Shown here piece after piece: positions 24,892 through 43,730 of a stretch of 64,000 nucleotides of DNA (its first letter is position 1; every line of letters starts with the position of its first letter). The DNA lies in contig CAVUXJ010000007.1 of NCBI GenBank assembly GCA_963745495.1, positions 165,471-229,470 on the forward strand, given 5' to 3'. The translations under genes were made by a program, and so were the position numbers. Source of the stretch: an uncultured Acidobacteriota bacterium (GTDB taxonomy: Bacteria; Acidobacteriota; Vicinamibacteria; Vicinamibacterales; CAVVIG01). The notes under the pieces are model-generated. The model was not told the origin of the DNA. It saw nothing but the letters and a program-made list of their open reading frames with translations, and made no database searches.

Positions 24892-26922
24892 CGGGACTCA
24901 CGCGTGCCCTCGGCGTCGCCTGATCCTGAGTTCCGCCTGGGTCGTCCTCGCCGTGGGCGGTCCGAGCGGAATCGTCTACGCTCTCCTTTTTGCCCTCGCA
25001 ACGATTCCCGGGCTGCCCCTCGGATTCGCGCTCTTTGGCCGCCGACATGCGGCGGGCTGGATTGCCGGCACCTTGTTTGGCTATGCCCTTACCGCGCTGG
25101 GCGTGCTGGGCGATTGTGTACCTGGGTGTGGCGTCGCCTCCCGCGTTCATCCTGGGATGGGGCGTTCTTTGCGCCTCGACCTGGACCGGCATCGCTGCAA
25201 TCCGTGGCCGGGACGCCCAACCCCTCGTCGATCTTCCGGCGTGGGGCCCGGCAGGCACGGCCGCTCTTCTTCTCGTGCTACTCCTGGTTCCGGCTCTGGT
25301 CGGCCGGCCCTTTTCGAAAATCGGCGCCGTGGACGCGGATGGCAATCGCCTCTACCGCGCCTACTTCACCGCCGATTTCGTCTGGCACACGGCGCTGGTC
25401 GCCGAGATGACGAAGCACACGCATCCGCCGCGGAATCCATATCTTGCTTCCGAGCCGGTGCACTACTACTGGACCTACTTCCTGGTGCCGGCGACGCTCG
25501 CGAGCCTCGCCAATCGGAATGTAGAGCAAGCGCTGGAACTGAACGCCTTCTGCGCCGCCCTGCTCTTCATCTCGGCGATCTATCTCGCGGCGTGGGCTGC
25601 CGTGCCCGCGCATCCGTTCGCGGTCGCACTCGCCGTGATGCTGACGACCGTCGCCGCGAGCGCGGAAGGGCTGGCGGCCATCGTCGATCTGGTCCGCCGC
25701 GGACAGTCGCTCGCCGTGCTGCGCGAGCTCAACATCGACGCGATTTCGTCGTGGGCGTTCAAGGGCCTGCGAATCGACAACCTGCCACGCGCCATGTGGT
25801 ATACGCCACAGCACGCGACTGGCCTGCGCGCTCGGCCTGCTTTCGGTTCCGGTCGCAATCTGGGGGGGCGTCCGGGCGCGTGCGGGCGCGATCGCACTGG
25901 CGGGAGCCGCGCTTGCGGCGTCGGTGGCGTTCAACCCGTTGCTCGGCGCCACGTTCTCGACGGTCTACGGTGTCACGATCCTCATCGACGCTGCGCGCCA
26001 GGGCGCCGGCCGCCGCGGGATCGGCCGCCACGCCATCGCCGCCGGGATGGTACTCGCCGCGGTCGGCTGGTGCATCCTGAACCAGATGACCGATGGTGCT
26101 GGCAGCGCACTGCACGTCGGGTTCGCCGACTCCGGCGCGAAACGCGCCCCTGGTGACCTATCTTGCTTTCGTTTGGTCCAATCCTTGTCCCTGCGGTGAT
26201 CGGCTTGTGGCCCAACGACGCCTCCTTCCTCTCACGGGCCCGGCCAGCCATCGTCGGCGTCGCGCTCAGCATCCTCGTGATGTTCTTCGTCACGCTGACG
26301 GTGGACATTTTCTGGGTCGGGTTTCGGGCAGGCAACCTCTTCTCCGTGTTCGTGCCGGCTCTCGTGGCACGTGGCTTGATCGCGCCGGTTCACCACGGTG
26401 GAAACCGTCAGCCATTGGCCTCGCTCTTCTCACGCTCGTGCTCGGGCTGCCGACGACGATCATCGACGCGTACAACACCCAGGATGTCGGCAACAGGCTC
26501 ATGAGCGTAGGGCGGATTTCACTGGACCATCGCCCTGACACCGGCCCAGCAGGAGGGCCTCGCCTGGATCCGCACACAAACTGCAGTGGATGCGATCGTG
26601 CAGGCGGAGCCGGTGATCCGGGAGCGCGAAACGTGGACGCTCATTCCCAGCTTCGCCGAACGCAGAATGGCGGCCGGGCTCCCGATCTCGTTGATGCACG
26701 TCCCGGCGTACGACCAGAAATCGGAGCAGGTGCGGCTGATCTATGCCTCGACGGACGCCGATGCCGCGTGGCGGGCCGCGAAACAGCTTCGCATCGACTA
26801 TCTGTACGTCGACGGCACCGAACGTGCGGCCTATCCAGCCGTCTCGAAGTTCGACGCGCACCCTGAGTACTTCACCCCCGTCTTCGGCAACATGCGAAGT
26901 CAGCGTTTATCGGGTGAAGTGA
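24888..26922 (+). CDS. large polytopic membrane protein with periplasmic C-terminal domain (GT-C-like, unassigned), at least 5 frameshifts
   Basis: Fragments: MTGLTRALGV/LILSSAWVVLAVGG (24848..), YRAYFTADFVWHTALVAEMTKHTHPPRNPYLASEPVHYYWTYF (24990..26156), FNPLLGATFSTVYG (25924..), FGPILVPAVIGLW (26163..), LGLPTTIIDAYNTQDV (26093..), IDYLYVDGTERAAYPAVSKF (26586..). The 3' end is inferred (..EVSVYRVK*). Confidence 0.5.
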
Positions 26923-27320: not shown

Positions 27321-28692
27321 CTACGGCAAGGGTTTGACGGTCGGGGGCGCGGGCAGGGGAATGACTTTCCAGTCGCCGAATGCCAGCTCGCGCGCGGCGA
27401 ACTGGTAGACGACCACTCGCTTCCCGTCGAGCCGATCGGGATCCCGCTGCAGCATGGCGCGCGTGGCGAACGCGCCCTCGTCGTTCTGCACGAGGCGATC
27501 GACCGGCCGCCGCAACGTGTAGCTCAATTGCTCGGCGAGGCCCGCGGAGGTGCCCCAGCCCATCGACTCGAGCGCGTAGATGTTGCTGAAGCTGTCGCCG
27601 AGCACCAGCACGTCCGCGTCGCGCGACGACCGCCACGGCGATCCGTCCGGCTGCAGGACGCGCCGCAGCCAGACCGCCTCGGGCGGAAACAGCGGCCCGT
27701 CGTCGGGCAGATCCAGCATCCGCGCGACGTCTCCGGTGTTGCGCACTTCCGGCCGCTCGATCCGGTAGCCGGGATCGGCCGTGACGGGCAGACGCACGTG
27801 CGCCGCGATGAAGCCGCCGAGCAGCTCCGCCACCTCCTCCATCGTTTCGGGCCGCCAGTGCGTGTCCGTCGCGAGGTACTGCGGGCCGCTGCGGCGCGCG
27901 GCGGCCAGCGCCTCCGACGGGTCGAACACCAGCACGCCGTCGCGCCTGAGGTCGTCCACGAACGCGCGGTACGACGGATTCTGCAGTGCGTCCGTCGCGT
28001 CGGCATAGCGACGGGCGAGCATCTCCGGGTGGACGCCCGGCTTGAGCGGCGTCGGCATGACGACGAGCGTGATCCCGCGCGCCTCGAGGTCGCGCCTGAA
28101 CTGCACGATCGCCTCGCGCGGATCGGGCTGCGGCGGCGCCGTCCACTCAGGTGCGGCGGCGACGCGCCGCCTGAGCTGCGCCGGGTCGAGGAATCCGCGT
28201 CCTGTGATGTACTCGACGTCCGGGCGATAGAACAGCCACCCGTCGCGCCCGCGATAGACGCGCTCGTTGCCGACGCCGAGCCAGCCGGTCATCACGACCT
28301 GCGCGGGCGGCCGGAGCGACCGTCCGAGCAGCGATTCAGCCTCCAACGAGCGCTCGAACCCGCTCAGTCCCGCGATCGCGATCCGGTTCATCGGAGACGA
28401 CGAGGCGCCACCCGCTCGGGTGCCTCCGCCGCCAGCGGTCGCACCGGCAAGGTGGGCACGGATCTCACCGGGAAGCGCTGACAGGCGTGACCAGGCGCGC
28501 GGCTGCTCCCTCCGCACCGCGCGCGCGCACGCCGGCCCACTCGACGATCGGCACCACGGCAATCGCCGTCAGGAAAAATGCCAGCAGGAAACGCACGGTG
28601 GCCGACGCGACGGTCGTGCTGTCCATCTCGATCTGGGCGATCTCCTCCCGGCTTCGTCCGCCCGCCGGCAGTGGCTGCTCAGGTGTCGACAT
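27321..28692 (-). CDS. DHHW/AlgJ-AlgX-like SGNH-fold O-acyltransferase partner protein, one frameshift near 28480
   Basis: ATG 28692: MSTPEQPL..TVRFLLAFFLTAIAVVPIV (TM anchor; ORF 28465..29025), then ORF 27321..28562 with ..YLATDTHW (DHHW-type motif) and ..VLVLGDSFS. Confidence 0.7.
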
Positions 28693-30153
28693 CAGAAAAT
28701 GAAATAGATGAACGGGTTGTAGGCTTGTGTGGCCAGCACCGCCACCGACAACACGAAACACGGCCAGGACAGCCGCCGCTTTCGGCAGCGTCAGCGTCCG
28801 CGTCCAGTCCCACGTCTGCGGTGCACTCCACACGATCGCGCCGGCCAGGAGAAACGTCCCCAGGTAGTACGGCTGATAGACCACGCCGGCCAGGAGGCCG
28901 GCGCCTTCCTGCGGATCACCCAGAGCCAGCATGTCGCCCAGATAGCGGACGGCCTGCGGCAGATCGGCCGCGCGGAAGAATACCCAGGTGATCAGCACGA
29001 TCGTGAAGGTGACGCCGACACGCACGGGCGCAGGAAGGCCGCCGTAGAGCGCCGCCTTTCCGCGAAGCCGCTCGAACGCCGAGCAGCGCGCCGTGCAGCG
29101 CCCCCCAGATCACGAAGTTCCACGCGGCGCCGTGCCAGAGGCCGCCAAGCAGCATGACGACGAACAGGTTCACGTACGTGCGGACGCGGCCCTTGCGGTT
29201 CCCGCCGAGCGGTATGTACAGGTAGTCGCGCAGCCACGCGGAGAGCGAAATGTGCCAGCGGTGCCAGAACTCGGTGATGGACTGCGAGCGGTAGGGGGAG
29301 TCGAAGTTCTTCGGGAACACGAACCCGAGCATCAGACCGAGGCCGATGGCCATGTCGGAGTAGCCGCTGAAATCGAAGTAGATCTGGAACGCGTAGGCCG
29401 TGACGCCATACCACGCTTCGATCGGACCGAGCGAGCCCGCCTCGAACGCCAGATCCGCGATCTTCCCGCACGGATTCGCCAGCAGCACCTTCTTCGCCAG
29501 GCCGAGGGAGAAGAACGCGATGCCCCGCGCGAACTTCGTCGTCGTGTACGTCCGCGACCGGAGCTGGTCCTCGATCTCCGAGTAGCGGATGATTGGACCC
29601 GCGACGAGCTGCGGGTACATCGTTTCGAAGCACAGAAAATCGACGAAGTTCTTGATGGCCGCCGAATGGCCACGAAAGACGTCGATGACATAGCTCAGCG
29701 ATTGCAGGATGTACAGGCTGATGCCGAGCGGCAGCGCCACGCGCAGCGTCACATCGAGTCCGATGTCCGGTGAGCCCCAGCCAGTCGACAAGCCCGTTGT
29801 AGCTGTCCACCCCGAAGTTGAAGTACTTGAAGAAGGCGAGCAGGGTGAGGTTCGCGCAGATCGAGATGATCAGGGCGGCTCGTTGCCGTCTCGTCCTGGG
29901 ACCGTCAGGGTCGAGCCTGTGAATCGGACGCGACCAGGACGCGCGGTCCACCGAGAGCGATCACGAGGCCCGCGACGTAGTCGATGAGCGTGGAGAACAA
30001 GAGCAGGAACGAGAACAGCGGGTTCGCCCAGCCGTAGAAGATGAAGCTGAGGATCGTCAGGATCAGGTGCTGCGCGCGCCGCGGAACGGCGTAATACAGC
30101 AGCAGAGCGACCGGGAGGAAATAGAAGAGGAAGAGATACGAGCTGAAGACCAT
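28692..30153 (-). CDS. MBOAT-family membrane O-acyltransferase (AlgI/DltB-like), at least 4 frameshifts
   Basis: MVFSSYLFLFYFLPVALLLYY (29905..30153), FFKYFNF (28992..29951), GISLYILQSLSYVIDVFRG..SITEFWHRWHISLSAWLRDYLYIPLGGNR..LLGGLWHGAAW (28916..29791). My translation of the end gives ..ATQAYNPFIYFIF* with TGATG overlap to the next gene. Confidence 0.8.
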
Positions 30154-30255
30154 CCTACGGCCGAGCCGACCTGGCTCCTGCGCGCCTTCGGCGCTTCAGC
30201 GCGCCTCGCCGAAGCTCGCGTGAGGGTCGCGCGAGCGTAGGCGTGAGCGCCCGGG

Positions 30256-31698
30256 TTATGGCGGGCTGACGTCATAGTACAGCGGCAGGCTCGACGCCTC
30301 GCTGCCGGAGATGAGCCGCTCGCCTTCGAGTTCGGGGTGCGCGTCGTAGCGTTCCACGGTCAGCGTGAACGCCGCGCCGGCCATCTTGCGCGCCTGCGGC
30401 GAGCACGCGGCCGTCGCGAATCGCCCACTGGGCGATCGGAATCGTGCGCTCCGCATACGTCCCTGTGATGACGTCCACGATTCGTACTCGTTGACGACCA
30501 GCGCGTGCCGGTAGGGCAGGATCGCCTGCGGCGTCGGGATCGGCCCCGGCCGGGTCAGGCGCACGTTGACCACGAGGCGCCCGGCTCGCCGCTGCTCCGC
30601 AGGCGCTGCCCGTCGCCGACTTGGCCGCGCGTTCGGGGGCCCGATCCGGCCGCGTCGGCCGCCGCGGATGCGGGCTGCGGCTGCGCGTCGATCCAGACGT
30701 CCGGGTACGAATCGCCACCGGAGTTGTTGGTCACCCGGGCCCACGCCTCGACTTTCGAGAAGTCGGCGCTGAAGCGTCCGACATACACCTCGGCCTGATT
30801 GCCGCCGGTGCGGGCCTGGTTGGCTCCGCCCTGGTTGTAGGGCCCGGAGATCGCCAGGAAGCGCGGATGGTTCGTCCAGCGCGGATGGAACACCTCCGCG
30901 CCGTCGAATCCCGGCGCGTGGTTGATGTTCACCATCCATCGCGCGTCGGTGTCGACATCGACCATCGTCACGTTGCGGTGCGCGCCGTCGAAGTACCAGA
31001 AGAGCGGCCCGCGCGCGTTGGTCAGGGCCGTCCAGCATCCCTCGCCCAGCTTCTTCCATCGGGCCGTTCGGCAGCGTCGGCGACGCCGGCCCTCGGCCAG
31101 GGAAACATGGCCGCCCGCGTGCCGGCCGTCGGCGCGACACCTGAAACGCTTCCATGCTGACCAGCGTCTTGTTCCAGACCAGCTCACGCTTGTGCGGGCG
31201 CGTCAATCGGAAACCGCGTGACCGTCGCGAAGTCGAGTTTCTTGTTGTCGGTCCCGACGTACACCCACTCGCTGCCGTCAGCGGGATTCTCCCAGAGAGC
31301 CAGCGCGTAGCCGTCGGCGAGCTTCCGCAAGACCGGTGCCGTCCCAGTTGACGATGAAGACTTCGGGAGGACCCGGGCAGCGATGCGGCTGCGAAAAGAC
31401 GATACGGTTGCCCTTCGGGGTCAGCCATGGGCCTCACGTAGCTCCGCCGTTCGCCGAGGATCACTCGCTCGCCCTTGCCATCCTCGGTATCGAAGCCCAT
31501 CAGGACGAGCTGGTCTCCTGACGCCCGCGGATCCGTGCCATCTCCCTGCACCCAGACGACGCGCGTGTGCGCGCCCGTCAAGGTGCGCACCTCAGCGCCT
31601 GGGCCTTCGACGGCATCGATGCCGACGGAGCAACCGGCCGCCAACAAGGCAAACAACGCGACGGCGCCGTGAGAAAAGCTCGGCAGTTTCACGGTCAT
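30256..31698 (-). CDS. periplasmic lipoprotein, probable beta-propeller (TolB-like), at least 4 frameshifts
   Basis: Lipobox MTVKLPSFSHGAVALFALLAAGC. Fragments include VVWVQGDGTD..LVLMGFDTEDGKGERVI, EVFIVNWDGTG, FWYFDGAHRNVTMVDVDTDARWMVNINHAPGFDGAEVFHPRWTNHPRFLAISGPY (30555..31187) and FTLTVERYDAHPELEGERL (30256..). The fold call is weak. Confidence 0.45.
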   Translation of the reverse strand: MTVKLPSFSHGAVALFALLAAGCSVGIDAVEGPGAEVRTLTGAHTRVVWVQGDGTDPRASGDQLVLMGFDTEDGKGERVILGERRSYVRPMADPEGQPYRLFAAASLPGSSRSLHRQLGRHRSCGSSPTATRWLSGRIPLTAASGCTSGPTTRNSTSRRSRGFRLTRPHKRELVWNKTLVSMEAFQVSRRRPARGRPCFPGRGPASPTLPNGPMEEAGRGMLDGPDQRARAALLVLRRRAPQRDDGRCRHRRAMDGEHQPRAGIRRRGGVPSALDEPSALPGDLRALQPGRSQPGPHRRQSGRGVCRTLQRRLLESRGVGPGDQQLRWRFVPGRLDRRAAAARIRGGRRGRIGPPNARPSRRRAAPAEQRRAGRLVVNVRLTRPGPIPTPQAILPYRHALVVNEYESWTSSQGRMRSARFRSPSGRFATAACSPQARKMAGAAFTLTVERYDAHPELEGERLISGSEASSLPLYYDVSPP

Positions 31699-31760
31699 CA
31701 GTTCAAACACTCGCGTGGAACACGAGTCGCTCCCATGGTACTACTACGGAGCCAATCCTC

Positions 31761-32604: not shown

Positions 32605-32677
32605 TTCATCACGAAGTCACGAAGAACACGAAGTCTTCTCAGCAAAACCAATTTCGTGCGCTTCGTGTCTTCGTGGT
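32605..32677. repeat. composite palindrome of CACGAAG words
   Basis: tcacgaagtcacgaagaacacgaagtc (32609-32636) versus tttcgtgcgcttcgtgtcttcgtgg (32653-32676). It lies between stop 32693 and start 32576 of co-directional genes. Confidence 0.7.
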
Positions 32678-32692: not shown

Positions 32693-33523
32693 TTAATTGC
32701 CCACGCGACGAGCCCTCAGGTAGCTTTCCACGCGCTCGAGATCTTCCGGGGTGTTCACGCCGAGCGCTTCGATGGCATCCACGCAAGGAAACGTCACAGT
32801 CTCCCCCCGGGCTGAAATCCACGGGATGAAGGGAAGGAAGTTCCGTTCGCCGGTAGCTTCTCCCGTGCCGGCCGACGCCGCGAACGACGTCAGATCGTCC
32901 AGAAATGCGTCGCGTGACAGGCTGAAGACGCCCATGTCACTTTCGCCCACCAGCGGCAGAAGATCGCCCTCGCGGCGATGCAACACGCGCACGATGCGGT
33001 CTGAGCTGTCGCGCTCGAGATGAATATAGGGGTCGGTCTGCCTCGCGGTCGGCATCACGAGTGCCGCCGCCGGGTGCGTGTCGCTCAACCTCGTCACCCG
33101 CTCCACCGTGTGCGGGTGGACCGCGACCTGATCACACCACGTAATCAGAATCCGCGACGCGTCCGAAGACGCGACAGTCGGAGTGGCGCGGAGGATCGCA
33201 TCGAGCATTCCTGTGGGGCTTTCCTGTACCTGGTACTCGAGCCGCGCACCGGTCGTCTCGCCGTACGCGCGGATTTGGTCGGCGGAGGAAGGGTGAACGA
33301 CGATGACCGCGCGATCGACGACGTCACGGTACAGGTCCAGCAGCCAGTCCAGCATCGGCCTGCCGTTCACGCTCGCGAGAACTTTCGGAAGCGTGGTCCG
33401 AAGACGGGTTCCGAGGCCGGCGGCGGGGACGACCAGCAGCCGGCCGGATGGTGGTCGATCACCGCGAGGGAACAGCAGTGGTCCTCCGCTCGTCCGCGCC
33501 CGGCAGCGCCTCGGTTTCAGCAC
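32693..33523 (-). CDS. MobA/GlmU-N-like nucleotidyltransferase (NTP_transferase fold)
   Basis: Intact ORF: LLVVPAAGLGTRLRTTLPKVLASVNGRPMLDW.. The ATG 33523 start overlaps the upstream gene by 65 nt. The substrate is not inferable. Confidence 0.7.
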   Translation of the reverse strand: MLKPRRCRARTSGGPLLFPRGDRPPSGRLLVVPAAGLGTRLRTTLPKVLASVNGRPMLDWLLDLYRDVVDRAVIVVHPSSADQIRAYGETTGARLEYQVQESPTGMLDAILRATPTVASSDASRILITWCDQVAVHPHTVERVTRLSDTHPAAALVMPTARQTDPYIHLERDSSDRIVRVLHRREGDLLPLVGESDMGVFSLSRDAFLDDLTSFAASAGTGEATGERNFLPFIPWISARGETVTFPCVDAIEALGVNTPEDLERVESYLRARRVGN

Positions 33524-35423
33524 GAACCGGCCGATGCGTCTGAAGACGCCCCCCCACCAGCGCGCTCAACGCGTGCAGTCCGTCGACGATGCTGGTTCGC
33601 TTGACCCGTTCCGGGGAGATCGGTAAGAACTGAACGGGGATCTCGAGCACTTCGGCCTTGCGCCGGAGCAGGCGTCCAAGCAGGTGTTGATTGGCGCGCT
33701 TGTGGGTCAACGGAACGGCGATGCCCAGGGCGTCGGCGGCACGCACCGCCCGGACCGCCGACAACGTATCGGAGATGTATCGCCCGTACAGGGCCAGGCA
33801 CGAGAGGCTGAGCACGTGGCTGCCCGCGTAACTGGCGGCGCCGAGCAGGACCTTGTGATGGTATCGCAGACGGTACGACTCCTGAATGTCGCGAATCGAC
33901 AAGCGCCGGCTGCCCCACACCGCATCGAGACGTCCGAACGTCAGATGCGAGGCAAGCCCGGCGATGTCCTCGCCGCGGTACATGCCGGACGACTCGAAGA
34001 GGATGACGTAATCGAAGGCCCTCTCTTGAACGGCGAGCCGGAATTGCTGTTCGACCGTCAGCGTGTCGCGCGGATGCAAGGCTTCCACGCGCATCGGCAG
34101 CGAGGCCACAAACCCCGGCTCGAGGGGATCTCCCTCGTAGAACGCCGTGACATCGACAGGGAGTTCGGCAATCCCGCCGCGGACCATCTCGAGGAGGCTC
34201 TGCGCCACTTTGTTGAGGGAGCCGGCATCGTGCAGCAGCACCGCCACTTTCTGGCGGTCCCGCCGTTGGAGGAGGGACCGGATGAACGGTCCGAGAATCT
34301 TTGCCGCGTCGTGCCGGCCGGTGACGCCATCCTCGTAGTTGGCGATCCGGACGAGCCGCGGGTCCTCGAGCGCGTCGATGTGACCAAGCGGCACGTAGGG
34401 TGACCCGGCCTCGGCCCCGCCCGGGTCGTTGACGATGTAGTGCGTGATCAGGCACGGCGTTGGAGCGCGCACGGCGCCCTTCTCCTCGAGATAGTGCAGC
34501 GCGCGCTCGATGATGTCCACGGCGGTGCTGCCGGCGATCTCCGCGTCGGCCTGAAGATTCGTGACGAGCAGCTTGATCGCCCCCAGGTTCCGGGCGATCG
34601 CCGTGCTGAGGCCGGGCGTCAGATACGACGGAAACAAGCTCGAGTGCTGGGTGCCCGGGGCATAGATGATCAGATCAGCGACCCTCAGCCGTTCGGCCAG
34701 CCGGGGATTCAACCGGACCGTCGCGCGGCGGCCCTCGAACATCGCCGCGGCGCGCGCGCCGTTGCGAGTCACGCTGTCCCGCTCGACCTCCGATAGCGGC
34801 CGATCGATCAGGTAGATGTCCTTGATCCGATTCTGGCCGGCCGCACCGACAATCTCCCCTTCGCTGCCGAGGACTGTGTCGTCCGCGCCGATCGCTACCA
34901 GGTAGGCGTTGGTCCCGTCGGTGACGTTCTCGATCAGGCCGACGGGCAAACCCAGAAGGCCGCAGTAATCGTCAATCGCCGCGTTGAAGTGGCGGCCGGC
35001 AAGCAGGAACGAACCGGCAAAGACCAGGTTCCCGACGCTGCAGTCGGAGAAATCGAACGGACGGCCGATCCGGCCGAATTCGTCGATGAATGCGTCGAGC
35101 CGTCTCGCGACCGGTGGCGTCGCCTCTGCCATGCGACGCAACGTGGCGACGGCCTCTCCGGGCGAGAGCCGGTCCGGGAGCCGGGTATCCAGCAATTCGA
35201 CGAGCGATGGCGCACACGTGCCCAGCTCGAGCCCGAGGCGCGAAGCATTCTTGCGAAAGTCCGACGGCCCGAGGCTGTCGCCCAGGAACCGGCGCACTTC
35301 ACCCGTCGAGGCGCCATCGTCGTACCCGTTGATCGCCAGGGTGAGACGGATCCGCGGATCTCTGACGAGCTCTTTCGACAGGACGCCGGAGCCGCGGCCG
35401 CCGGAGAAGAGGACCACGCGCAT
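33459..35423 (-). CDS. CofD/YvcK-like (UPF0052) domain fused to a GT2-like C-terminal domain
   Basis: Internal ATG 35423 of ORF 33459..35612: MRVVLFSGGRGSGVLSKELV..INGYDDGASTGE..IIYAPGTQHSSLFPS (CofD-like). C-terminal half: ..YVILFESSGMYRGEDI..AVWGSRRLS..ISDTLSAVRAVRA (GT2-like, degenerate DxD). Intact. Confidence 0.7.
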   Translation of the reverse strand: MRVVLFSGGRGSGVLSKELVRDPRIRLTLAINGYDDGASTGEVRRFLGDSLGPSDFRKNASRLGLELGTCAPSLVELLDTRLPDRLSPGEAVATLRRMAEATPPVARRLDAFIDEFGRIGRPFDFSDCSVGNLVFAGSFLLAGRHFNAAIDDYCGLLGLPVGLIENVTDGTNAYLVAIGADDTVLGSEGEIVGAAGQNRIKDIYLIDRPLSEVERDSVTRNGARAAAMFEGRRATVRLNPRLAERLRVADLIIYAPGTQHSSLFPSYLTPGLSTAIARNLGAIKLLVTNLQADAEIAGSTAVDIIERALHYLEEKGAVRAPTPCLITHYIVNDPGGAEAGSPYVPLGHIDALEDPRLVRIANYEDGVTGRHDAAKILGPFIRSLLQRRDRQKVAVLLHDAGSLNKVAQSLLEMVRGGIAELPVDVTAFYEGDPLEPGFVASLPMRVEALHPRDTLTVEQQFRLAVQERAFDYVILFESSGMYRGEDIAGLASHLTFGRLDAVWGSRRLSIRDIQESYRLRYHHKVLLGAASYAGSHVLSLSCLALYGRYISDTLSAVRAVRAADALGIAVPLTHKRANQHLLGRLLRRKAEVLEIPVQFLPISPERVKRTSIVDGLHALSALVGGRLQTHRPVRAETEALPGADERRTTAVPSR

Positions 35424-35427
35424 CCGT

Positions 35428-36562
35428 CTACCACTCCACCCATCGCGTAATGCCCAGAGTGCGGAACGTTGCGAGTCCGCTGAAGTTGCTGTGGCAAAGG
35501 TACCATCGACTGTTTTCAGTACACCGCGGTGACATGGTCCGTGCCGTCGGCTCACGCCCGGCGATCCGGAGTTCCTTGTCGATGAACTCCCAGTGCACCC
35601 TGTAGTCGACACAGGCGTCTGCCCGGTTCGCGACCTTGGCGACGCACAGACCGCCGAAATTGAACTTCACCGGCGGCAAACCGGTGATCGAGGACCCCGT
35701 AGTAGACAAACTCCGCTCGATTCCGGTCGACATACGTTCTTCTCGGCTGCTGCGCCCCGAGCCTCGTCGCACGTGGTCGAGAAGTTGTGCAGAACCTGAT
35801 CGGTCGGCACGTCCGACTGGGAGAAGAGTGTCAGGAAGTCCTCCCCCATGTCGAGGATTTCCTTCTGCGAGTCGTGCACATCGACGGCGAAGGTTCGCGA
35901 CGTGGTATTGGAGTGACCGACCCCGCCCTCGGTGAATGACTCGGTGACCGTCAGCACCACTGCCACCGTGGAGGGAGTCGGCGACAGGGTGGCGGGCACG
36001 TGCCACGAGACTGTGGCGCCCGAACCGCTGAACGACGCCCGGACCGCTCCAGGCGTAGGCAAGAGCGCCGGCTGGCGTCTCGACGTCGGTCACGGTCGCC
36101 ACCAGGGTGATCGTCTCGTCGAGGTCCGCGAAGCCGCTTGGTTGGTTCGTCCGTGAGCCGATGCTCCGGATACTCGCGATGACGGGGCGCCTGATTCGCG
36201 CCGGACGGAGCCACAAACGTGAACCCGCGGGTCAGGATTGCCGTTCGGCCACCCGACGTCACAACCACGTCGACGGCCCCTGCCGCGCTCGACGCAGGAG
36301 TCGCCGCGGTGATGGCCTGGGCGCCTTGAACAGCAACGAGCGATGCCGCCGCTCCGCCAATCGTGACCGTCGCGTCGCTCGAGAACCCCCTGCCGCTGAT
36401 GGACACCGGCGTGCCACCTCTCGTGCTGCCGGTCGCCGGCGAGATCGCGGAAATCGACAGCCCGGTCGGCGTGGGCCCGGTCGTCGAGTCTCCGCAGCCT
36501 CCCGCCGCCATCAGGAGAGCTACGACGCCGACCCGGAGGTGACGAAGACTCGAGATCTGCAA
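35428..36562 (-). CDS. lipoprotein with IPT/TIG domain and Cys-containing C-terminal domain, about 3 frameshifts
   Basis: TTG 36562: (M)QISSLRHLRVGVVALLMAAGGC, then ISAISPATGSTRGGTPVSISGRGFSSDATVTIGG..VDVVVTSGG (IPT/TIG; ORF 35951..36658). It continues in 35428..36216 and 35667..36062. Confidence 0.6.
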
Positions 36563-36581
36563 GCCCGTTGACCGCTGCTCG

Positions 36582-37742
36582 TCAATCGGGAGTGGAGCCT
36601 GCGGCCGCGGGCACTCTGACGGGCGCGCCGCGCCGCTTCTCTCGTGTGGCCCGAACAAGGAATTTCACGTACGGCACGATCTGCTTCACGGCCGCGACGT
36701 TCATCTGGCAGGGGCTGAGGCACGTCGGACACTGCTCGTCGCGAATCGAGTCCCGGTGCTGCTGGCTCGACACCCGGAAGTACAACTCTTCAGGATCTTC
36801 TTCGAGGACGTTCCCGACAACCTTGCTGTTCTCGCAGAAGAACAGACCCCCATCCGGGTTCAACATGATCCCCTGGGTCTGAAACGGACACGGCGCCTCG
36901 CGGTGATACCCGTTGCCGATCATGTCGGCGTAGTGCAGGTGGATGTAGTTCTGGCCGTCGAGCAGCGGATCCATCCGCACGCGCTCCAGGAAGAACTGCC
37001 GCATGCGCTCTTCCTCGCGGCCGATCGGCTTGCATGTGGTCGCCAGATCGGCGTTGCCGAGCATGGGATCGGAGAAGCGCACCATGTTGAAGACGATGTC
37101 GAGCTTCTCGCGCTTCGCCCAGGACAGGATGTTCTCGGTGTCGTCGATGTTCTTGTTGAAGATGGTGGCCGAGACCCCGAAGTTGAACGGGATGCGCTTC
37201 TGCAGCGCCTGCATCGCGCGGATGGTCTCGTTCGCCTTCTCGAAGCCCCGCTTCACCTGGCGGACCTCGTTGTGCATCTCGCCGACGCCGTCGATCGAGA
37301 CGCGCGTGCTGAAAATGACGCCGCGCTCGTGGCAGAGCTCGGCGACCCTGGTGAGCATCGGAATGGCCCGGTGCGGCGTGAGCCCCGTGGTGTTGATCCC
37401 GTACTTCCGCAGCCTCGGCAGCCGATCGAGGATGACCTGCGAGATCTCGACCATGTCGTTACGCGTTGTCGGCTCTCCGCCCGAGAGCATGGCCATCTCG
37501 ACCTTCCGCCACAGCGGCGACGCGAACACGCGGTCGATCTGCTCGAGCGTCATGTCGGACTTGCGGTCCCCGCGCTGCCAGTTGCTGCACATCTCACAGC
37601 GCGCGTCGCAGACGAACGTGCAGTGGAAGATGATCACCGTGGGGTGAATCGCCTTGAAACGGGCGACGTACGCGTTGACGAGGTCGCGCGGCGCGCTCGC
37701 CGCCGCCTTGGCGAGGTACTTCAACGCATAGGTTTGGGCCAT
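36582..37742 (-). CDS. radical SAM protein with SPASM-like C-terminal Cys cluster
   Basis: Intact 386-aa ORF: FHCTFVCDARCEMC (CxxxCxxC), SGGEPT, C-terminal CPFQTQGIMLNPDGGLFFCEN..CPTCLSPC. Confidence 0.8.
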   Translation of the reverse strand: MAQTYALKYLAKAAASAPRDLVNAYVARFKAIHPTVIIFHCTFVCDARCEMCSNWQRGDRKSDMTLEQIDRVFASPLWRKVEMAMLSGGEPTTRNDMVEISQVILDRLPRLRKYGINTTGLTPHRAIPMLTRVAELCHERGVIFSTRVSIDGVGEMHNEVRQVKRGFEKANETIRAMQALQKRIPFNFGVSATIFNKNIDDTENILSWAKREKLDIVFNMVRFSDPMLGNADLATTCKPIGREEERMRQFFLERVRMDPLLDGQNYIHLHYADMIGNGYHREAPCPFQTQGIMLNPDGGLFFCENSKVVGNVLEEDPEELYFRVSSQQHRDSIRDEQCPTCLSPCQMNVAAVKQIVPYVKFLVRATREKRRGAPVRVPAAAGSTPD

Positions 37743-37784: not shown

Positions 37785-39785
37785 GTGATTTCGAGCCTGG
37801 CCCCTGCCGGAACCGACCGCCTCGACGATGCCGCGCTCGCCCGGCTGGGCCGCGCCGCCCTGTTTGTGCTCTTCAGCTACGTCTTTCTCGCGAATGCCTG
37901 GCTCGGCGACGACGCGTACATCACGTTCCGGGTGGTCTGGAACTTCCTTCACGGGTACGGGATCACGTTCAACCCGGACGAGCGTGTGCAAGCGTACACC
38001 CACCCCCTGTGGATGCTGGTCCTCGCCGCGGCGCACGGTGTCACTCGCGAGTTCTTCTTCACCGCGACCGTCCTCTCCTGGGCGTTCAGCATCGCCGCCG
38101 TCGCGGTGCTCGTGCGCTGGGCACGGACGCTGCCGCGCGCCGCGCTGCTCGTCGCATGGCTGGTGAGTTCGAAGGCGTTTATCGACTACACCTCCTCGGG
38201 GCTCGAATACCCTCTGAGCTATCTGCTCCTGGCGCTGTTCTATACGCGCTACCTGGACCGGCCATTCGGCGCGCCGCTCGCGACGCGGGAGCTGCGATGG
38301 TTCGTCGTGGTCGCCTCGCTCGCGTTTCTGACCCGACCGGATGCCGTGCTGCTGTACGCCGTGCCGGTCGGCGCGATGGTGGCGCAGAGCCTCCGGCTGC
38401 GCGGACGCCGGGCGCTCGGACCCGTGGCGGCCGGGCTCGCGCCGGCGATTCTGTGGCTCGGCTTCGCGACGCTCTACTACGGGTTTCCGCTGCCGAACAC
38501 GTATTACGCGAAGGTCGCGACCGGCATCCCACGCTTCCTGATGATGCGCCAGGGCGCCGCGTACGTGCTGAACAGCATCAGCCACGATCCGATCACGCTC
38601 GGCACGATCGCCTTGTCGCTGATGTTCGCGTGGCGAACGCACGGCGCCGCTCGGAGGGCGGCTGTCTCCGCGGCTTTGTACGTGGCGTACACCGTCTCGG
38701 TCGGCGGCGATTTCATGAGCGGCCGTTTCTTCGCGATGCCCTTTCTCGTCGCCCTGATGACCGTCATCCCCGAAGTCGGCGCGTCCGGCGCGCCGTGGGC
38801 AGCGGGCGCGTTGCTCGTCTACAACCTGCTCATGCCGATCGTGCCGGTGAAGACGACCGCCTCGTATGACGCGGCGTGGGTGTGGCGCACGCAGAACGGC
38901 ATCAAGGACGAGCGGGGACACTACCACCGGGGAACCAACGTCCTGTTTTTCAGCCCCTTCAGGGAGCTGCCCGACTTTGTCTGGGTCCGGGAGGGTCTCA
39001 GCTTCCGCAATGGCGCGGAGAAGGTGACGATCCAGGGGAGCATCGGATTCTTCGGTCTCTACGCCGGGCCGACCAAGTTCCTCATCGATCGAAACGCCTT
39101 GTCCGATCCGCTGCTGGCGCGACTGCCCGTGTCTCCCCGCCTGTACTTCGAGTTCTACGCGAGCCACTACTTCCGGGATCTTCCCGCGGGCTACGTCGAG
39201 TCGTGCAACCGCGGCGAGAACCTCCTGCAGGACCCGCTGCTGCACGACTATTACGATCGGTTGCGCAACGTCACCCGGGGACCGCTCTTCCGAACGGCAC
39301 GATTCCGAGACATCTGGAACCTGAATCTCGGCCGGTTCCGGAATCTGCACGAGATGTACGAGAAGCGCCGGGAGGTCGAGCTCTCGGTTCGAGCGGACAA
39401 CGAGCGGTTTCTGACCGACGTCGGCAATCGCGATCAAGTCGCGGGCGCTTTGCGCGCGACGGGCCGCGCCGGCTATCTGCAGTACGGTCCCCGCATCCCG
39501 ATCAAGAAGGGGTATTACCGCGCACGATGGGTCGGCACCGTTGATGCGGCGCCAGGCGGCCAGATCGGGTACGTCGAGGTCTGGGGCGGACCGGAGCAGC
39601 GCCTCGATCGGCAGCCGGTCACGACCGCCGGACTCGACGCGCACCGCCGGCTGGCCCACATCGACTTCAACCTGCCCGACGACCTCGAAGCGCTGGAGTA
39701 CCGGTTTTACGTCAACCAGGGCGTCCGGATGACCCTCGAACGCGTCGAGCTGTTTTCCGCGACGGCTGTGCCGGCCGACAATTGA
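37785..39785 (+). CDS. GT-C-fold membrane glycosyltransferase (arabinofuranosyltransferase-like N-terminal DD motif)
   Basis: GTG 37785 in the frame of ORF 36756..39785. The upstream 1 kb of that ORF is an antisense shadow of the radical SAM gene. AWLGDDAYITFRVVWNFLHGYG, about 12 TM helices and a large C-terminal soluble domain. Intact. Confidence 0.7.
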   Translation: MISSLAPAGTDRLDDAALARLGRAALFVLFSYVFLANAWLGDDAYITFRVVWNFLHGYGITFNPDERVQAYTHPLWMLVLAAAHGVTREFFFTATVLSWAFSIAAVAVLVRWARTLPRAALLVAWLVSSKAFIDYTSSGLEYPLSYLLLALFYTRYLDRPFGAPLATRELRWFVVVASLAFLTRPDAVLLYAVPVGAMVAQSLRLRGRRALGPVAAGLAPAILWLGFATLYYGFPLPNTYYAKVATGIPRFLMMRQGAAYVLNSISHDPITLGTIALSLMFAWRTHGAARRAAVSAALYVAYTVSVGGDFMSGRFFAMPFLVALMTVIPEVGASGAPWAAGALLVYNLLMPIVPVKTTASYDAAWVWRTQNGIKDERGHYHRGTNVLFFSPFRELPDFVWVREGLSFRNGAEKVTIQGSIGFFGLYAGPTKFLIDRNALSDPLLARLPVSPRLYFEFYASHYFRDLPAGYVESCNRGENLLQDPLLHDYYDRLRNVTRGPLFRTARFRDIWNLNLGRFRNLHEMYEKRREVELSVRADNERFLTDVGNRDQVAGALRATGRAGYLQYGPRIPIKKGYYRARWVGTVDAAPGGQIGYVEVWGGPEQRLDRQPVTTAGLDAHRRLAHIDFNLPDDLEALEYRFYVNQGVRMTLERVELFSATAVPADN

Positions 39786-39866: not shown

Positions 39867-39936
39867 CCGCGAAGTCACGAAGAGCACGAAGAGCGTCTGG
39901 TATTAAGATCATTCGTGGTCGTCGGCTCGTGCGTGG
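39867..39936. repeat. imperfect palindrome of CACGAAG-type words in an AT-rich spacer
   Basis: ccgcgaagtcacgaagagcacgaagagcg versus cattcgtggtcgtcggctcgtgcgtgg. Pairing is only partial. It lies between co-directional genes 37785..39785 and 39973..41268. Confidence 0.4.
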
Positions 39937-39972: not shown

Positions 39973-41268
39973 ATGAAACGAATCGTCTCGGGCGGGGTCG
40001 CCGCTCTGATGGCAGGTACGGCGGTGGTGTTGTTCGCGCAAACACGGGCGGGGGCGTTGCCCGCCTGCGATCCCGACAATGCCGGATTGAAGCTGCCCAC
40101 CGGCTTCTGCGCGGTGGTGGTCGCGGACAACCTCGGCATCGGCCGGCAGATGGCTGTGGCACCGAACGGCGACCTCTTCGTCTCGCTGCGAAACGTCAAT
40201 GCGCAGACACCCGGCAGCATCGTCGGGCTGCGCGATACGAACGGCGACGGCAAGTTCGACGTCCAGGAGAAGTTCGGCGACCAGGGGGGCACGGGCCTCG
40301 CGCTGCGGAGCGGCTACCTCTACCACGCGCGGGAAACAGCCGTCGTGCGCTTCCCGATCAAGGCTGGAGAGCTGAAGCCGTCAGGGCCGGCCGAAGTCAT
40401 CGCGACGCTGCCCCAGCAGCAGGGACACACGGCCAAAGGCATCGCGTTCGATGGCAAGGGCGGGATGTACGTCAACATCGGCGCGCCCTCGAACGCCTGT
40501 CAGGAGAAGGACCGGACCGCCGGTTCACCGGGCCAGAACCCGTGCCCGCTGCTCGAGAAACATGGCGGAATCTGGCGGTTCGACGAGAACAAAGGCGGTC
40601 AATCGCCGGAGAGTGGCGGCCGCCGCTACGCCACGGGCCTGCGACAGTTCTACGCTCTGGCGTGGAACGGGGGAGCGCTCTACGCCGTCCAGCACGGGCG
40701 CGATCAGCTGGACATGTTGTTCCCGCAGTTCTATGACTCGAAGAAGAATGCCGAGCTCCCGTCAGAGGAACTGCTGCGGATCGAGGACGGCTCGACCTTC
40801 AGCTGGCCGTACTGCTACCACGATTGGCAGCAGGGCAAGCGCGTTCAGAGTCCCGAATACGGCGGCGACGGCACGAAGGTCGGCGATTGCGCCAAATATC
40901 CGCCGCCGGTCGCCGCGTTCCCTGGTCACTGGGCGCCGGGCGGGCTGCTCTTCTACTCGGGGTCGCAATTCCCGGCGCGGTATCGGGGCGGCGCGTTCAT
41001 CGCGTTTCAGGGATCCTGGAACCGCGCACCCGAAGAGGCGGGCGGTTACAAGGTGGTGTTCCAGCCCTTCCAGGGCGGCAAGGCAGCGGGAAATTACGAG
41101 GTCTTCGCGGACGGATTTGCCGGCGTGACGCCGTTGATGAAGCGCGAGGACGCCAAGGCGCGGCCGTCCGGGCTCGCGCAGGGACCCGACGGGACGATCT
41201 ACATTTCAGATTTGGTCAAGGGCAGGATCTGGCGGATCGTCTACCGTGGCGGTGCGCAGTCGCAGTAG
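39973..41268 (+). CDS. PQQ-dependent sugar (sorbosone/aldose) dehydrogenase-like beta-propeller
   Basis: Intact 431-aa ORF with AGGAGGAG SD and a signal peptide. ..HTAKGIAFDGKGGMYVNIGAPSNAC..GIWRF..LLFYSG..GPDGTIYISD. Confidence 0.75.
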   Translation: MKRIVSGGVAALMAGTAVVLFAQTRAGALPACDPDNAGLKLPTGFCAVVVADNLGIGRQMAVAPNGDLFVSLRNVNAQTPGSIVGLRDTNGDGKFDVQEKFGDQGGTGLALRSGYLYHARETAVVRFPIKAGELKPSGPAEVIATLPQQQGHTAKGIAFDGKGGMYVNIGAPSNACQEKDRTAGSPGQNPCPLLEKHGGIWRFDENKGGQSPESGGRRYATGLRQFYALAWNGGALYAVQHGRDQLDMLFPQFYDSKKNAELPSEELLRIEDGSTFSWPYCYHDWQQGKRVQSPEYGGDGTKVGDCAKYPPPVAAFPGHWAPGGLLFYSGSQFPARYRGGAFIAFQGSWNRAPEEAGGYKVVFQPFQGGKAAGNYEVFADGFAGVTPLMKREDAKARPSGLAQGPDGTIYISDLVKGRIWRIVYRGGAQSQ

Positions 41269-42589: not shown

Positions 42590-43650
42590 TTGACCGCCGC
42601 TCGCCTGCTTGGGGTTGATTTCAAGCTGTTGACGGATCGCGTCGAAAAAGATCTCGGCCATCTTCCCATAGCCTGTGTCATTCGGGTGCAGGCCATCGAA
42701 GCTCAATAACGCCATCGTCTGGCCGGCGAAGCCCGAGTACAGATCGACCAGCGACGCACCTTCACTCGCGGCCATGACCCGAATCTGGGCGTTGGCCGCG
42801 ACGATGTCGTCGCGTCCGTCCACGAAGTCGAACGCGCGGCAGCCGCACCGGTCCTCCGGCAGCAGCGTACCGACGAGGACGCGAATCCCGCGGCTTCGCG
42901 CCTCGCGGATCATGGTCCTCAGGTCCTGCACGAGAGGGCCGATGTGCGCCGCCTGATCCCCACGAGCATGTATGTCGTTGATCCCCTCCATCAGCAACAG
43001 CACGTCCGGCGCCCTGCGATGCCAACACGCCCGGCAGGCGGCTCGACCCATCGGAAGCCGTCTCCCCGGGTTCTCCTTCGTTGACGACGGACGGGCGACT
43101 GAGCGCTGTAGCGGCTCGCCAGCAGCGCGCTCAGCTTCAGCGGATACGACGAAGACGACGCATTCAAATCGGCTCTCAGTTGACGGATGTCGAACAGCCG
43201 TTCTGTCAGCGTCAAGACTGGGGCGGTTCCACAGCGGGACACTGGCGGCGCGCCGAGTGAACAGGTGGTCGGCAGCACCCCGGCCGTGATGCTGTCGCCA
43301 AAGGCGAGGAACTTCGTCGCGCTGAGTTTGGGCGGCGTCACGACGGCGATCCGAAAACTACAGGAAGCCGCCCGCTGGACGGCATCCCTGGCGAGGCACG
43401 CCACGTCGGTCGTTCCGACCTCGAAACGCGCGCCGCTCTGACGCGTGCACGTCGTCGTCACCGGCGACGTGCCTCCGGTCACAACCGGCGCTGCAAAGGC
43501 AACCGTGACCGCGAGCCCGTCGAGCGATTGCACCGTTTGCGCAGCCGGACAAGAGATCGTCAGGGCGGCTGGCGTCGGCCGTGTCGGGCTGTCGCCGCAC
43601 GCAGTGGCCGCCAGTGCGAGCACCACCGCGACCGCCAGACCGCACCACAT
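42575..43650 (-). CDS. lipoprotein: HYR domain + SGNH/GDSL hydrolase, 2 frameshifts near 43030-43090
   Basis: ATG 43650: MWCGLAVAVVLALAATAC. ISCPAAQTVQSLDGLAVTVAFAAPVVTGGTSPVTTTCTRQSGARFEVGTTDVACLA (HYR-like), FLAFGDSITAG (block I), then ORF 42575..43051 LLLMEGINDI..FDGLHPNDTGY. Confidence 0.7.
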
Positions 43651-43730
43651 TCGGGCGTTGCGCGGTGCCAGCGAGTGGTCCGGGCAACGCCAGCCCCAGC
43701 AATCGGGGGATTCCCGGCATGCGGTATGTG

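Follow-up and report, generated by a model that had tools for sequence, protein, structure and literature searches.

In a 64,000-nucleotide stretch of DNA from an uncultured Acidobacteriota bacterium of the order Vicinamibacterales (assembly GCA_963745495.1, contig CAVUXJ010000007.1, positions 165,471 to 229,470 of the forward strand; hereafter the window, at its full length), we have analyzed a gene cluster singled out by an earlier note made from the sequence alone. Its core encodes a two-domain fusion protein, a nucleotidyltransferase (NT) and a stand-alone GT2-type glycosyltransferase. The genes are real, and we give about even odds to the reading that they make up the cytoplasmic part of an undescribed, widespread envelope-glycosylation pathway. 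In this pathway, the module would supply the lipid-linked donor from which a sugar is transferred at the outer side of the inner membrane, with the fusion acting as the nucleotide-sugar-handling partner of the GT2. The argument draws on domain identities, lost and kept catalytic residues, synteny and gene fusions, all of which were observed in the course of the analysis.

Results

The conserved core consists of the fusion, the nucleotidyltransferase and the GT2

Domains were assigned by Pfam and NCBIfam profile searches, with scores judged against the cut-off of each model. The features that carry the argument are the following (positions in the window):

35423-33459, minus strand: fusion gene, ATG start at 35423, 654 residues, beginning 4 nt after the stop codon of a lipoprotein frame
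34269..35423, minus strand: YvcK/GlmR-like (CofD superfamily) domain, fusion residues 1 to ~385
33459..34268, minus strand: degenerate DPMS/ArnC-like GT2 domain, fusion residues ~386-654
33523-32693, minus strand: NT gene, GTG start, overlapping the fusion gene by 65 nt
32576-31881, minus strand: stand-alone GT2 gene, starting 116 nt past the NT stop codon and missing from the earlier note

A pattern scan over one genome per species returned about 395 stretches encoding the fusion. The 80 best, all from metagenome-assembled genomes (MAGs) and nearly all labeled Vicinamibacteria or Acidobacteriota, were combined with 5 others into a set of 85 loci that was searched by tblastn with the window proteins. 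A close GT2 homolog (52-95% identity) is present in 79 of these loci, mostly directly after the NT gene, and an NT homolog in 78, mostly directly downstream of the fusion gene; in most relatives little or no DNA separates the NT and GT2 genes. The six loci without a close GT2, four of which are short contigs, gave only a 25-28% match within the fusion gene itself. A radical SAM homolog lies within 10 kb in 39 of the 85, directly upstream of the fusion gene only in the subclade of the window and otherwise on the opposite strand, some 6 kb downstream. Close homologs of the AftB-like GT-C glycosyltransferase occur in 9 loci, and pieces of the lipoprotein in 4 to 21. A second approach, the unsupervised clustering of gene calls from 82 loci (obtained with a crude open reading frame (ORF)/GC3 caller), agrees with the tblastn synteny.

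Since the fusion, NT and GT2 genes recur together across the 85 loci, we take these three to be the conserved core. The earlier note had proposed a different unit, made up of the radical SAM, lipoprotein, fusion and NT genes; this set is not co-conserved, the TIG lipoprotein (like the GT-C) being found in few relatives and the radical SAM in fewer than half of the loci, and it omits the GT2. Its suggestion that the CofD-family domain, the degenerate GT2 domain and the NT work together has fared better, as the three are adjacent in nearly all of the 85 loci and fused in the sister family described below.

The conservation data also bear on the possibility that the adjacency is incidental or that the genes are decaying, so that the four noted genes form no functional unit at all. 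The lipoprotein gene is frameshifted, the neighboring MBOAT and LPG_synthase_TM genes are broken, and the radical SAM, lipoprotein and GT-C genes do not keep a fixed place from one relative to another, all of which would fit such a view. Against it, the fusion, NT and GT2 genes are intact and keep their synteny in nearly every locus, other lineages carry them fused, the fusion is at least 61% identical across its 120 best database matches, and independent metagenome contigs lack the frameshifts of the lipoprotein gene. We therefore consider this explanation very improbable, and for the fusion-NT-GT2 core it is largely refuted.

The N-terminal domain of the fusion resembles YvcK/GlmR

Database searches find over 2,000 full-length relatives of the fusion. 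Among these, the 120 best matches are 61-100% identical, 624-704 residues long and mostly from Vicinamibacterales, and the named ones among them carry a CofD-family or YvcK name. An alignment of 46 fusion sequences has a mean column identity of 61%. The AlphaFold2 model of the protein (pLDDT 78) shows two domains, which Foldseek relates to YvcK-type proteins (N-terminal) and to GT-A/GT2-like folds (C-terminal).

The N-terminal domain, annotated as CofD-family in the earlier note, does belong to the Pfam family CofD (PF01933, 51.8 bits against a cut-off of 30), which spans YvcK-type proteins as well. At E <= 0.01 it matched only two NCBIfam models, TIGR04357 (77.9 bits, cut-off 340) and the YvcK model TIGR01826 (39.1 bits, cut-off 196), and no CofD equivalog model. 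Among solved structures, a PDB sequence search gave 2hzb (E 5e-9), and sequence and profile searches up to E 10 returned relatives that are all YvcK-type chains, with no CofD. Foldseek likewise placed 2hzb on top (E 6.4e-13, TM(target) 0.72), found 2o2z and 2q7x as well, and listed no CofD among the top 50 matches to the fusion model. CofD proper is ruled out as the identity of this domain by the NCBIfam, PDB sequence and profile, and Foldseek searches, and the domain is best classed as a divergent member of the YvcK/GlmR branch.

GlmR/YvcK proteins synthesize UDP-GlcNAc from UTP and GlcNAc-1-P (PMC10128056, PMC13046274). Their motifs GG(R)G, DDGxSTG, PGTQHSSLFPSY, N289 and RHD are present and invariant in the N-terminal domain, whose invariant residues include G8 G9 R10 G11, D35 D36 G37, P256 G257 T258 Q259, N289 and R370 H371 D372. 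The Asp pair D35/D36 is invariant in the 46 sequences and in the sister family, and aligns with the DD of ADDGGSSG in 2hzb. By this alignment, D35 and D36 are the counterparts of D38/D39 in Bacillus subtilis GlmR, mutation of which impairs the uridyltransferase function (PMC13046274), and of D40/D41 in Listeria monocytogenes GlmR, where a mutant at the predicted active-site residues D40, D41 and N198 is impaired in the same function (PMC10128056). The third predicted catalytic residue and the UDP-sugar ligands Thr13, Asn217, Tyr264 and Arg300 of GlmR give a mixed picture: Thr13 is replaced by the invariant R10 and the Asn of the LPN motif by the invariant S266, Asn217 corresponds to the invariant N289, the counterpart of Arg300 is probably R370 of the RHD motif and that of Tyr264 is uncertain, the C-terminal alignment being unreliable and the model confidence low in this region. 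An alignment with Escherichia coli YbhK, made to place the YvcK ligand residues of the C-terminal part, was ambiguous. The domain is interrupted by some 60 inserted residues of helical structure (~65-125).

The nucleotidyltransferase and the stand-alone GT2 are intact

The NT matches NTP_transf_3 in Pfam (67.3 bits) and, over residues 31-273, GlmU in NCBIfam (76.2 bits). Its top PDB matches are GlmU N-domains (E 4e-11), with which it shares the LPKVL loop and a Gln aligned to the UTP-coordinating Gln76 of GlmU. We consequently read it as a predicted stand-alone GlmU-like sugar-1-phosphate nucleotidyltransferase with the pyrophosphorylase domain only. The GTG at 33523 is the sole canonical start in its frame, and the gene calls of relatives show at the fusion/NT junction either an overlap of 62-74 nt or a 41-nt gap.

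CofC was considered and rejected as an identity for the NT, the whole-length match in NCBIfam and the PDB being to the GlmU pyrophosphorylase domain and none being to CofC. In this regard, of the proposal that the gene encodes a MobA/GlmU-like nucleotidyltransferase acting in the manner of CofC, the GlmU likeness stands and the CofC-type analogy does not. The wider analogy that had been drawn with the CofC/CofD pair of F420 biosynthesis becomes the weaker reading, with an N-terminal domain nearest to YvcK/GlmR, the Asp-Asp pair kept and an NT that matches GlmU.

The stand-alone GT2 scores 104.8 bits against Glycos_transf_2 in Pfam and has no membrane domain. Its nearest solved relatives are the DPMS of Pyrococcus furiosus (PfDPMS, 5mlz, E 1.5e-18) and ArnC (E 2.4e-14); no NCBIfam equivalog cut-off was reached (AglJ, 100.5 bits against 325). 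It carries the residues E12, D39, D89-A-D91, R117, D154, R202 and K208 (PfDPMS numbering), and is predicted to be an intact polyprenyl-phosphate glycosyltransferase of the DPMS/ArnC/AglJ type. This enzyme, together with the GT-C and flippase-like genes nearby, lends substance to the lipid-linked sugar context that had been suggested for the cluster.

The fused GT2 domain has lost its catalytic site and kept a lipid-phosphate arginine

The C-terminal half of the fusion has no match in Pfam. Its predicted structure nevertheless finds ArnC (9asc, E 6e-7), GtrB (9nyd, E 1e-3) and also GpgS in Foldseek, and BLASTP aligns it with the neighboring GT2 at 29% identity over 154 residues (E 2e-17); it is a paralog of this adjacent stand-alone enzyme. 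Catalytic sites were mapped by alignment to PfDPMS, with residue roles taken from PMC5526996:

E12, loop lock with R202: kept in the GT2; S in the fused domain
D39, guanine-base binding: kept in the GT2; not conserved in the fused domain
D89, sugar-hydroxyl contact: kept in the GT2; E in the fused domain
D91, metal ligand: kept in the GT2; S in the fused domain
Q93, metal ligand: E in the GT2; M in the fused domain
R117, positions the lipid phosphate: kept in the GT2; kept in the fused domain (R506 in GSR, invariant)
D154, conserved position: kept in the GT2; kept in the fused domain
R202, loop lock and alpha-phosphate contact: kept in the GT2; I or L in the fused domain
K208, loop lock with E12: kept in the GT2; kept in the fused domain (K or R)

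The fused domain has lost its loop lock and the ligands for metal and diphosphate (DAD replaced by ESS), and the arginine that positions the lipid phosphate is retained. These changes hold in all seven Vicinamibacterial fusions examined, with the exception of one protein (P0119) that has Asp at the D89 position. The counterpart of PfDPMS Ser135 could not be placed owing to an insertion in the interface helix. The domain in the Vicinamibacterial lineage is accordingly predicted to be catalytically dead, since it lacks the features that define GT2 catalysis. The designation of a degenerate GT2 given to it previously is borne out by the replacement of the DXD/Gln site and of the Glu12-Arg202 lock within a preserved GT-A fold. 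The replacing residues are themselves conserved in the 46-sequence alignment, with E477 in at least 90% of the sequences and S478, S479, G480, M481 and Y482 invariant. Because these residues are invariant or nearly so, we take the former GT2 pocket to have been remodeled and not to be decaying.

A rival reading, put forward in the earlier note, is a CofD-type phosphotransfer, in which the NT would turn a phospho-compound or sugar-1-phosphate into an activated NDP-X (NDP, nucleoside diphosphate) and the CofD-like domain would move X-phosphate to a hydroxyl or phosphate, releasing the nucleoside monophosphate (NMP); the acceptor would be polyprenyl phosphate or a polyprenyl-phosphate sugar held by the dead GT2 domain. 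Several features fit this idea. The N-terminal domain falls in Pfam CofD, and CofD is the only superfamily member with such chemistry; the pseudo-GT2 domain retains the counterpart of Arg117, the lipid-phosphate positioner of PfDPMS (PMC5526996); its former active site is conserved from E477 to Y482 as in a pocket in use; and the invariant R10, which stands where the glycine-rich loop otherwise has Thr, could provide a binding site for a further phosphate. The NT and GT2 already provide a full route to a lipid-linked sugar, so that the fusion could add a further step, and no initiating transferase of the WecA/WbaP type was found among the Pfam-labeled neighbors. On the other hand, the likeness to CofD proper does not go beyond the superfamily, the NT is GlmU-like and not CofC-like, and none of the neighbors checked belongs to an F420-related Pfam family. 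Furthermore, one relative (P0270) joins the domain directly to a canonical GT2 without a second GT2-like domain, and the nearest studied relatives are uridyltransferases (PMC13046274, PMC10128056). Taken together, we regard CofD-type phosphotransfer as unlikely. Slightly less likely still is its bolder form, a new carrier-lipid-directed phosphotransferase formed by the YvcK-like and DPMS-derived domains. From the NDP-sugar made by the neighboring NT, it would pass sugar-1-phosphate or a different phospho-group to polyprenyl phosphate, or to a polyprenyl-phosphate sugar held by the dead GT2 domain, with release of NMP. If true, lipid intermediates with pyrophosphate or phosphodiester linkages would have a soluble route of synthesis that is unrelated to the WecA/MraY and WbaP families, and the UPF0052 superfamily would gain a second enzymatic chemistry outside F420.

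A sister family carries the same domains in other arrangements

An exhaustive profile-free search with the N-terminal domain returned 1,432 representative clusters, and 306 of these reach E <= 1e-30. Many of the cluster proteins are 640-700 residues long, and the one of this length that was scanned (P0154) has a recognizable GT2 as its C-domain. Other proteins extend the fusion: the NT, the CofD-like domain and a GT2 are joined in single proteins (P0169, P0185 and P0196), the NT and the CofD-like domain alone in another (P0166), and HAD, NT, CofD-like and GT2 domains in one (P0270). The idea that the YvcK-like domain of this four-domain fusion is a sugar kinase completing a sugar-to-lipid salvage route was set aside because B. 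subtilis YvcK binds neither ATP nor GTP (PMC5482804).

A second genome scan gave 281 stretches of the sister family in at least 10 phyla, from which 80 loci were examined. Labeled taxa are Bdellovibrionota, Bryobacterales/Terriglobia, Magnetococcales, Myxococcota, Elusimicrobiota, Patescibacteria, Margulisiibacteriota and Dependentiae, and the cultured carriers include Bacteriovorax sp. BSW11_IV, Fluviispira multicolorata and Bryobacterales F-183 (on a plasmid). The operon typically runs (B12-binding radical SAM)-SAM methyltransferase-HAD-NT-fusion-GT2, often followed by GtrA and a 569-residue membrane protein; its HAD protein is of the beta-phosphoglucomutase family. A canonical GT2 was called in 64 of the 80 loci, mostly directly after the fusion, and GtrA in 13, and no separate NT gene was called beside the sister fusions of 932-994 residues. 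The fused GT2 domain keeps the metal ligands and Arg117, Arg202 and Lys208, with Asp39 and Asp89 changed; it probably works, with a different donor recognition.

The NT of the window is 38% identical to that of the sister family. The window has no HAD gene, no methyltransferase gene of the sister type and no B12-radical SAM gene, and the SPASM-type radical SAM is almost restricted to the Vicinamibacterial branch. The B12-radical SAM protein of the sister family, often first in the operon, has as its best NCBIfam match the Sden_1168-type P-methyltransferase (169 bits, below cut-off). Its succession by a SAM methyltransferase suggests a methylated or otherwise radical-tailored sugar, or possibly phosphonate-like chemistry.

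The sister family also bears on a further explanation, namely that the fusion is purely a sensor or scaffold. On the model of B. subtilis GlmR, which tunes GlmS, the YvcK-like domain would sense the NDP-sugar and the dead GT2 domain would heteromerize with the active GT2, tuning its activity. YvcK/GlmR of B. subtilis does bind UDP-GlcNAc and UDP-Glc, with modulation of its function (PMC5482804, PMC7525490, PMC13046274). In addition, the fusion has counterparts of Asn217 (N289) and Arg300 (R370, a probable assignment given the unreliable C-terminal alignment), dead paralogous domains are often regulatory partners, and the PDB entries of ArnC and GtrB hold several identical chains, which fits oligomers. 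However, the catalytic Asp pair is invariant in both families, the domain is constant across many phyla and fused in line with three enzymes, which is less usual for a regulator, and the sister-family version of the fused GT2 domain appears to be active. A role as sensor or scaffold alone is, in our judgment, not probable.

Other genes of the island

The remaining features of the noted cluster and of the wider island are these:

37742-36582, minus strand: radical SAM gene, ATG start, TGA stop, 386 residues
36562-35428, minus strand: probable lipoprotein frame, frameshifted, with a TTG start at 36562 (19 nt after the radical SAM stop) and the stop TAG at 35430-35428, carrying an IPT/TIG domain (50.9 bits) and a PKD-like C-terminal part
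37785-39785, plus strand: GT-C gene, GTG start, 666 residues, divergent from the radical SAM gene and 42 nt from its ATG
21339-22898, minus strand: PMT_2-type GT-C, intact (Pfam PMT_2, 54.8 bits)
23841-24891, plus strand: flippase-like LPG_synthase_TM gene in two overlapping frames (57.3 and 68 bits)
32610-32675: hairpin of three CACGAAG units facing three CTTCGTG units, with arms of 23 nt that are 87% complementary

The ORF list and the DNA confirm that the four genes of the earlier note lie on the minus strand where it had placed them. Its coordinates, strand, gaps of 19 and 4 nt, 65-nt overlap and GT-C divergent at 42 bp were all re-derived from the DNA, and its domain calls were recovered in Pfam (Radical_SAM 48.3, TIG 50.9, CofD 51.8 and NTP_transf_3 67.3 bits).

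The radical SAM protein (PF04055) has the cluster motif C45-x3-C49-x2-C52 and a C-terminus that is SPASM/twitch-like. The assignment to SPASM holds in part: five C-terminal cysteines are present, but the score of 17.2 bits lies below the cut-off of 21.5. No NCBIfam subfamily was reached (best 56 bits against a cut-off of 306), and the sole PDB match is a weak one to PqqE.

The lipoprotein signal peptide ends in ...LLMAAGGC. In a relative that is 95% identical, the long-read soil MAG L006, the gene is an intact one of 358 residues, lying 4 nt before its own fusion gene. Against this copy, the window gene carries nine indels of one base each within 1.08 kb; eight are insertions, and base runs account for few of the sites. 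Over the 1.97 kb of the fusion gene next to it, the two sequences show just two in-frame 3-nt differences and no frameshifting indel. The indel versions of the window are missing from the Logan contigs that cover them, which come from three soil-metagenome runs of two studies (the L006-like state is backed by three runs at two sites, by two at three and by one at four). As these indels are missing from independent soil contigs, the gene is intact in the natural population, and the copy in the window is either mis-assembled or decayed in this strain. Split frames are also seen in the MBOAT gene (28465-30153), the ORF at 30256-31710 and the LPG_synthase_TM gene, the two frames of which account for positions 6-102 and 98-295 of the Pfam model. 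That errors crowd in some genes and spare others could be an artefact of assembly or polishing, or real decay.

The GT-C protein matches NCBIfam NF041481 (AftB) with 42 bits (E 3e-11), and its sole solved relative is mycobacterial AftB (9dlf, E 4e-10), with an N-terminal DD motif WLGDDAYITFRV aligned to WIADDGLIVLRTV. These matches, weak but specific, point to an AftB-like GT-C. Its place is taken elsewhere by other multi-pass proteins, namely a 673-residue family and PMT_2. The clustering of 82 loci found the 673-residue family in 38, LPG_synthase_TM in 31 and relatives of PKD-type lipoproteins in about 21. Further recurrent partners are VTT/DedA proteins, GDSL/HYR esterases, Ig-, FN3- and PKD-type lipoproteins, a SAM methyltransferase and an inositol-monophosphatase-family gene. 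The wider island of the window (20177-24923 and 42991-43818) also contains an Ig-like (Rha78A_N) lipoprotein and an HYR-domain protein, and the PMT_2, LPG_synthase_TM, Ig-like lipoprotein and HYR families recur near the fusion in relatives.

Two further blocks flank the cluster. On the minus strand at 27321-31710, 3' of the GT2 gene, lie an ORF without Pfam match that is probably frameshifted, a fragmented AlgI-like MBOAT gene and an AlgX-type SGNH protein, the last two of which make up a polysaccharide O-acetylation pair; the block is kept in L006 and not in other relatives. On the plus strand at 39973-41268, after the GT-C gene, lies a glucose/sorbosone-dehydrogenase-like beta-propeller (GSDH, 32 bits), kept in L006 only.

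The hairpin between the nucleotidyltransferase and GT2 genes

The hairpin, described in the earlier note as a word-palindrome bounding the operon downstream, is real, but the unit continues past it with the GT2 gene. It folds with -41.8 kcal/mol (z -2.4), has no T-tail and is missing at the same place in L006; Rfam gave no family in the window and none on the hairpin. The exact three-unit pattern (CACGAAG)x3 ... (CTTCGTG)x3 was recovered in over 120 genome stretches. These span many phyla, with Methylobacter, Planctomycetota, Acidobacteriota, Gemmatimonadota, Verrucomicrobiota, Lentisphaerota, Cyanobacteria and Chloroflexota among the sources. The motif has stereotyped flanks, mutually compensating spacers and loops mostly of 7-126 nt. 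Examples are L168 (898-1355), L169 (2-57) and L216 (2262-2321); in the first, the arms enclose a GxxExxY-family gene (TIGR04256, 142.8 bits). We did not find the motif described in the literature. The hairpin of the window is probably the empty form of a small cross-phylum mobile inverted-repeat cassette unrelated to the glycosylation genes. At 39868-39924, just 3' of the GT-C gene, stands a weaker relative of the heptamer motif (CGCGAAGTCACGAAG) with a 13-nt inverted repeat.

Discussion

The observations on the core allow us to propose a model for its function. The NT would convert a sugar-1-phosphate and a pyrimidine NTP into an NDP-sugar, from which the intact DPMS/ArnC-like GT2 would transfer the sugar to polyprenyl phosphate. 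The product would then be carried by a flippase-like protein (in the window LPG_synthase_TM, in the sister family GtrA) to the other side of the membrane, where GT-C enzymes (AftB-like, PMT_2-like and others) would hand the sugar to envelope acceptors, which may include the co-encoded Ig-like, TIG and PKD lipoproteins. Within this scheme, the YvcK/GlmR-like domain of the fusion would bind the NDP-sugar or, as GlmR does, synthesize it, and the dead GT2 domain would let the fusion dock on the active GT2, the carrier lipid or the membrane. For the sister-family fusion, in which the GT2 domain still looks active, we propose an enzyme of two steps that leads from the NDP-sugar to the lipid. The sugar may be tailored by the radical SAM protein in the window, and by the B12-radical SAM protein and the SAM methyltransferase in the sister family. 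A GT2, a flippase-type protein and GT-C enzymes are indeed found in one neighborhood in the window (LPG_synthase_TM, AftB-like and PMT_2).

Several points weigh against this proposal. We infer all of its steps from homology, and we also infer the fusion's role as a partner in the lineage of the window. Two of the ligand or catalytic positions of GlmR are altered in the N-terminal domain (T13 to R10 and the LPN Asn to S266), and its YvcK score is 39 against a cut-off of 196 bits. The separate GlmU-like NT looks redundant if the YvcK-like domain is itself a nucleotidyltransferase, and in the lineage of the window channeling into the fused GT2 domain is excluded because that domain could not use an NDP-sugar with metal. 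The window holds no HAD/beta-phosphoglucomutase-like gene as a source of sugar-1-phosphate, and the gene caller behind the clustering of loci was a crude one.

In Firmicutes and mycobacteria, YvcK/GlmR proteins play an important part in virulence and in keeping the envelope intact, and their biochemistry has been assigned only recently; to our knowledge, Gram-negative YvcK homologs such as E. coli YbhK have no known role. Vicinamibacteria, in turn, are abundant soil bacteria that have barely been cultured. Our findings bring forward a large and unremarked branch of the superfamily, with matching stretches in about 700 of the species-representative genomes scanned and in at least 10 phyla. In this branch the domain is fused to polyprenyl-phosphate glycosyltransferase domains and, in some lineages, to a nucleotidyltransferase and HAD as well. 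The prediction that arises is that the domain acts on nucleotide sugars at the point where the sugar is loaded onto the carrier lipid. The locus would mark an uncharacterized envelope-glycan pathway in Vicinamibacteria, and the cultured carriers of the sister family make experiments feasible.

Comparison with known systems

Full-text searches of the literature gave no described pathway that matches, in agreement with the earlier note, which had recognized none. Neither the fusion nor the operon was found described, and the sole trace is a remark on Mycoplasma fermentans PG18, in which a Clostridial-type island holds a glucofuranan synthase, a CofD-family gene and an NDP-nucleotidyltransferase, left unexplained (PMC11658790). 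Compared by description only, that island has the same trio of GT2, CofD-family and nucleotidyltransferase genes; there, however, the GT2 is a processive membrane synthase and the CofD-family gene is present as two pseudogenes in the polymer-making strain (PMC11658790). A furanose link between the AftB-like GT-C and the glucofuranan island was considered, and has been downgraded to a weak lead because the CofD-family gene is a pseudogene in the producing strain.

YvcK/GlmR (2hzb, 2o2z, 2ppv, 2q7x) is the nearest system to the N-terminal domain in both sequence and fold. The two have in common GGxG, DDGxSTG, PG(S/T)xxSSLxP, the Asn of the xNV/xNL strand and the C-terminal RHD. The N-terminal domain departs from YvcK/GlmR in its identity of only about 21%, the helical insertion, the changes of Thr13 to Arg and of the LPN Asn to Ser, and the GT2-type fusion. 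Its genes lie in a glycosylation operon, whereas GlmR is encoded in yvcJ-yvcK-whiA, and no such neighbors were found in the relatives of the fusion. Moreover, the fusion occurs in Acidobacteriota and other Gram-negative phyla, unlike the YvcK/GlmR of B. subtilis and L. monocytogenes.

The likeness to CofD/FbiA (LPPG:Fo 2-phospho-L-lactate transferase) consists of PF01933 and of a gene paired with a nucleotidyltransferase gene. It differs from the fusion in that the latter matches no CofD equivalog or solved CofD, has a GlmU-like partner and lacks an F420 context, its neighbors being those of polyprenyl-phosphate-sugar metabolism. The CofD-like protein of the GAK system (TIGR04357) is the best NCBIfam match of the N-terminal domain, at 77.9 bits against 340; the GAK system is itself uncharacterized, and neither its ATP-grasp nor its HprK-related kinases are found among the neighbors.

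Finally, the systems GtrA/GtrB/GtrC, ArnC/ArnE-F/ArnT, PpgS/Rv3779 and DPA/AftB resemble the locus in combining a GT2 that loads polyprenyl phosphate, a flippase-type protein and a GT-C acting outside the cytoplasm. They have no YvcK-like protein, no dead GT2 paralog and no set of NT, HAD, methyltransferase and radical SAM genes in the same operon. Together, these likenesses and differences suggest that the locus would work in the manner of a Gtr/Arn/PpgS-type lipid-linked glycosylation system to which a GlmR-like component has been added.

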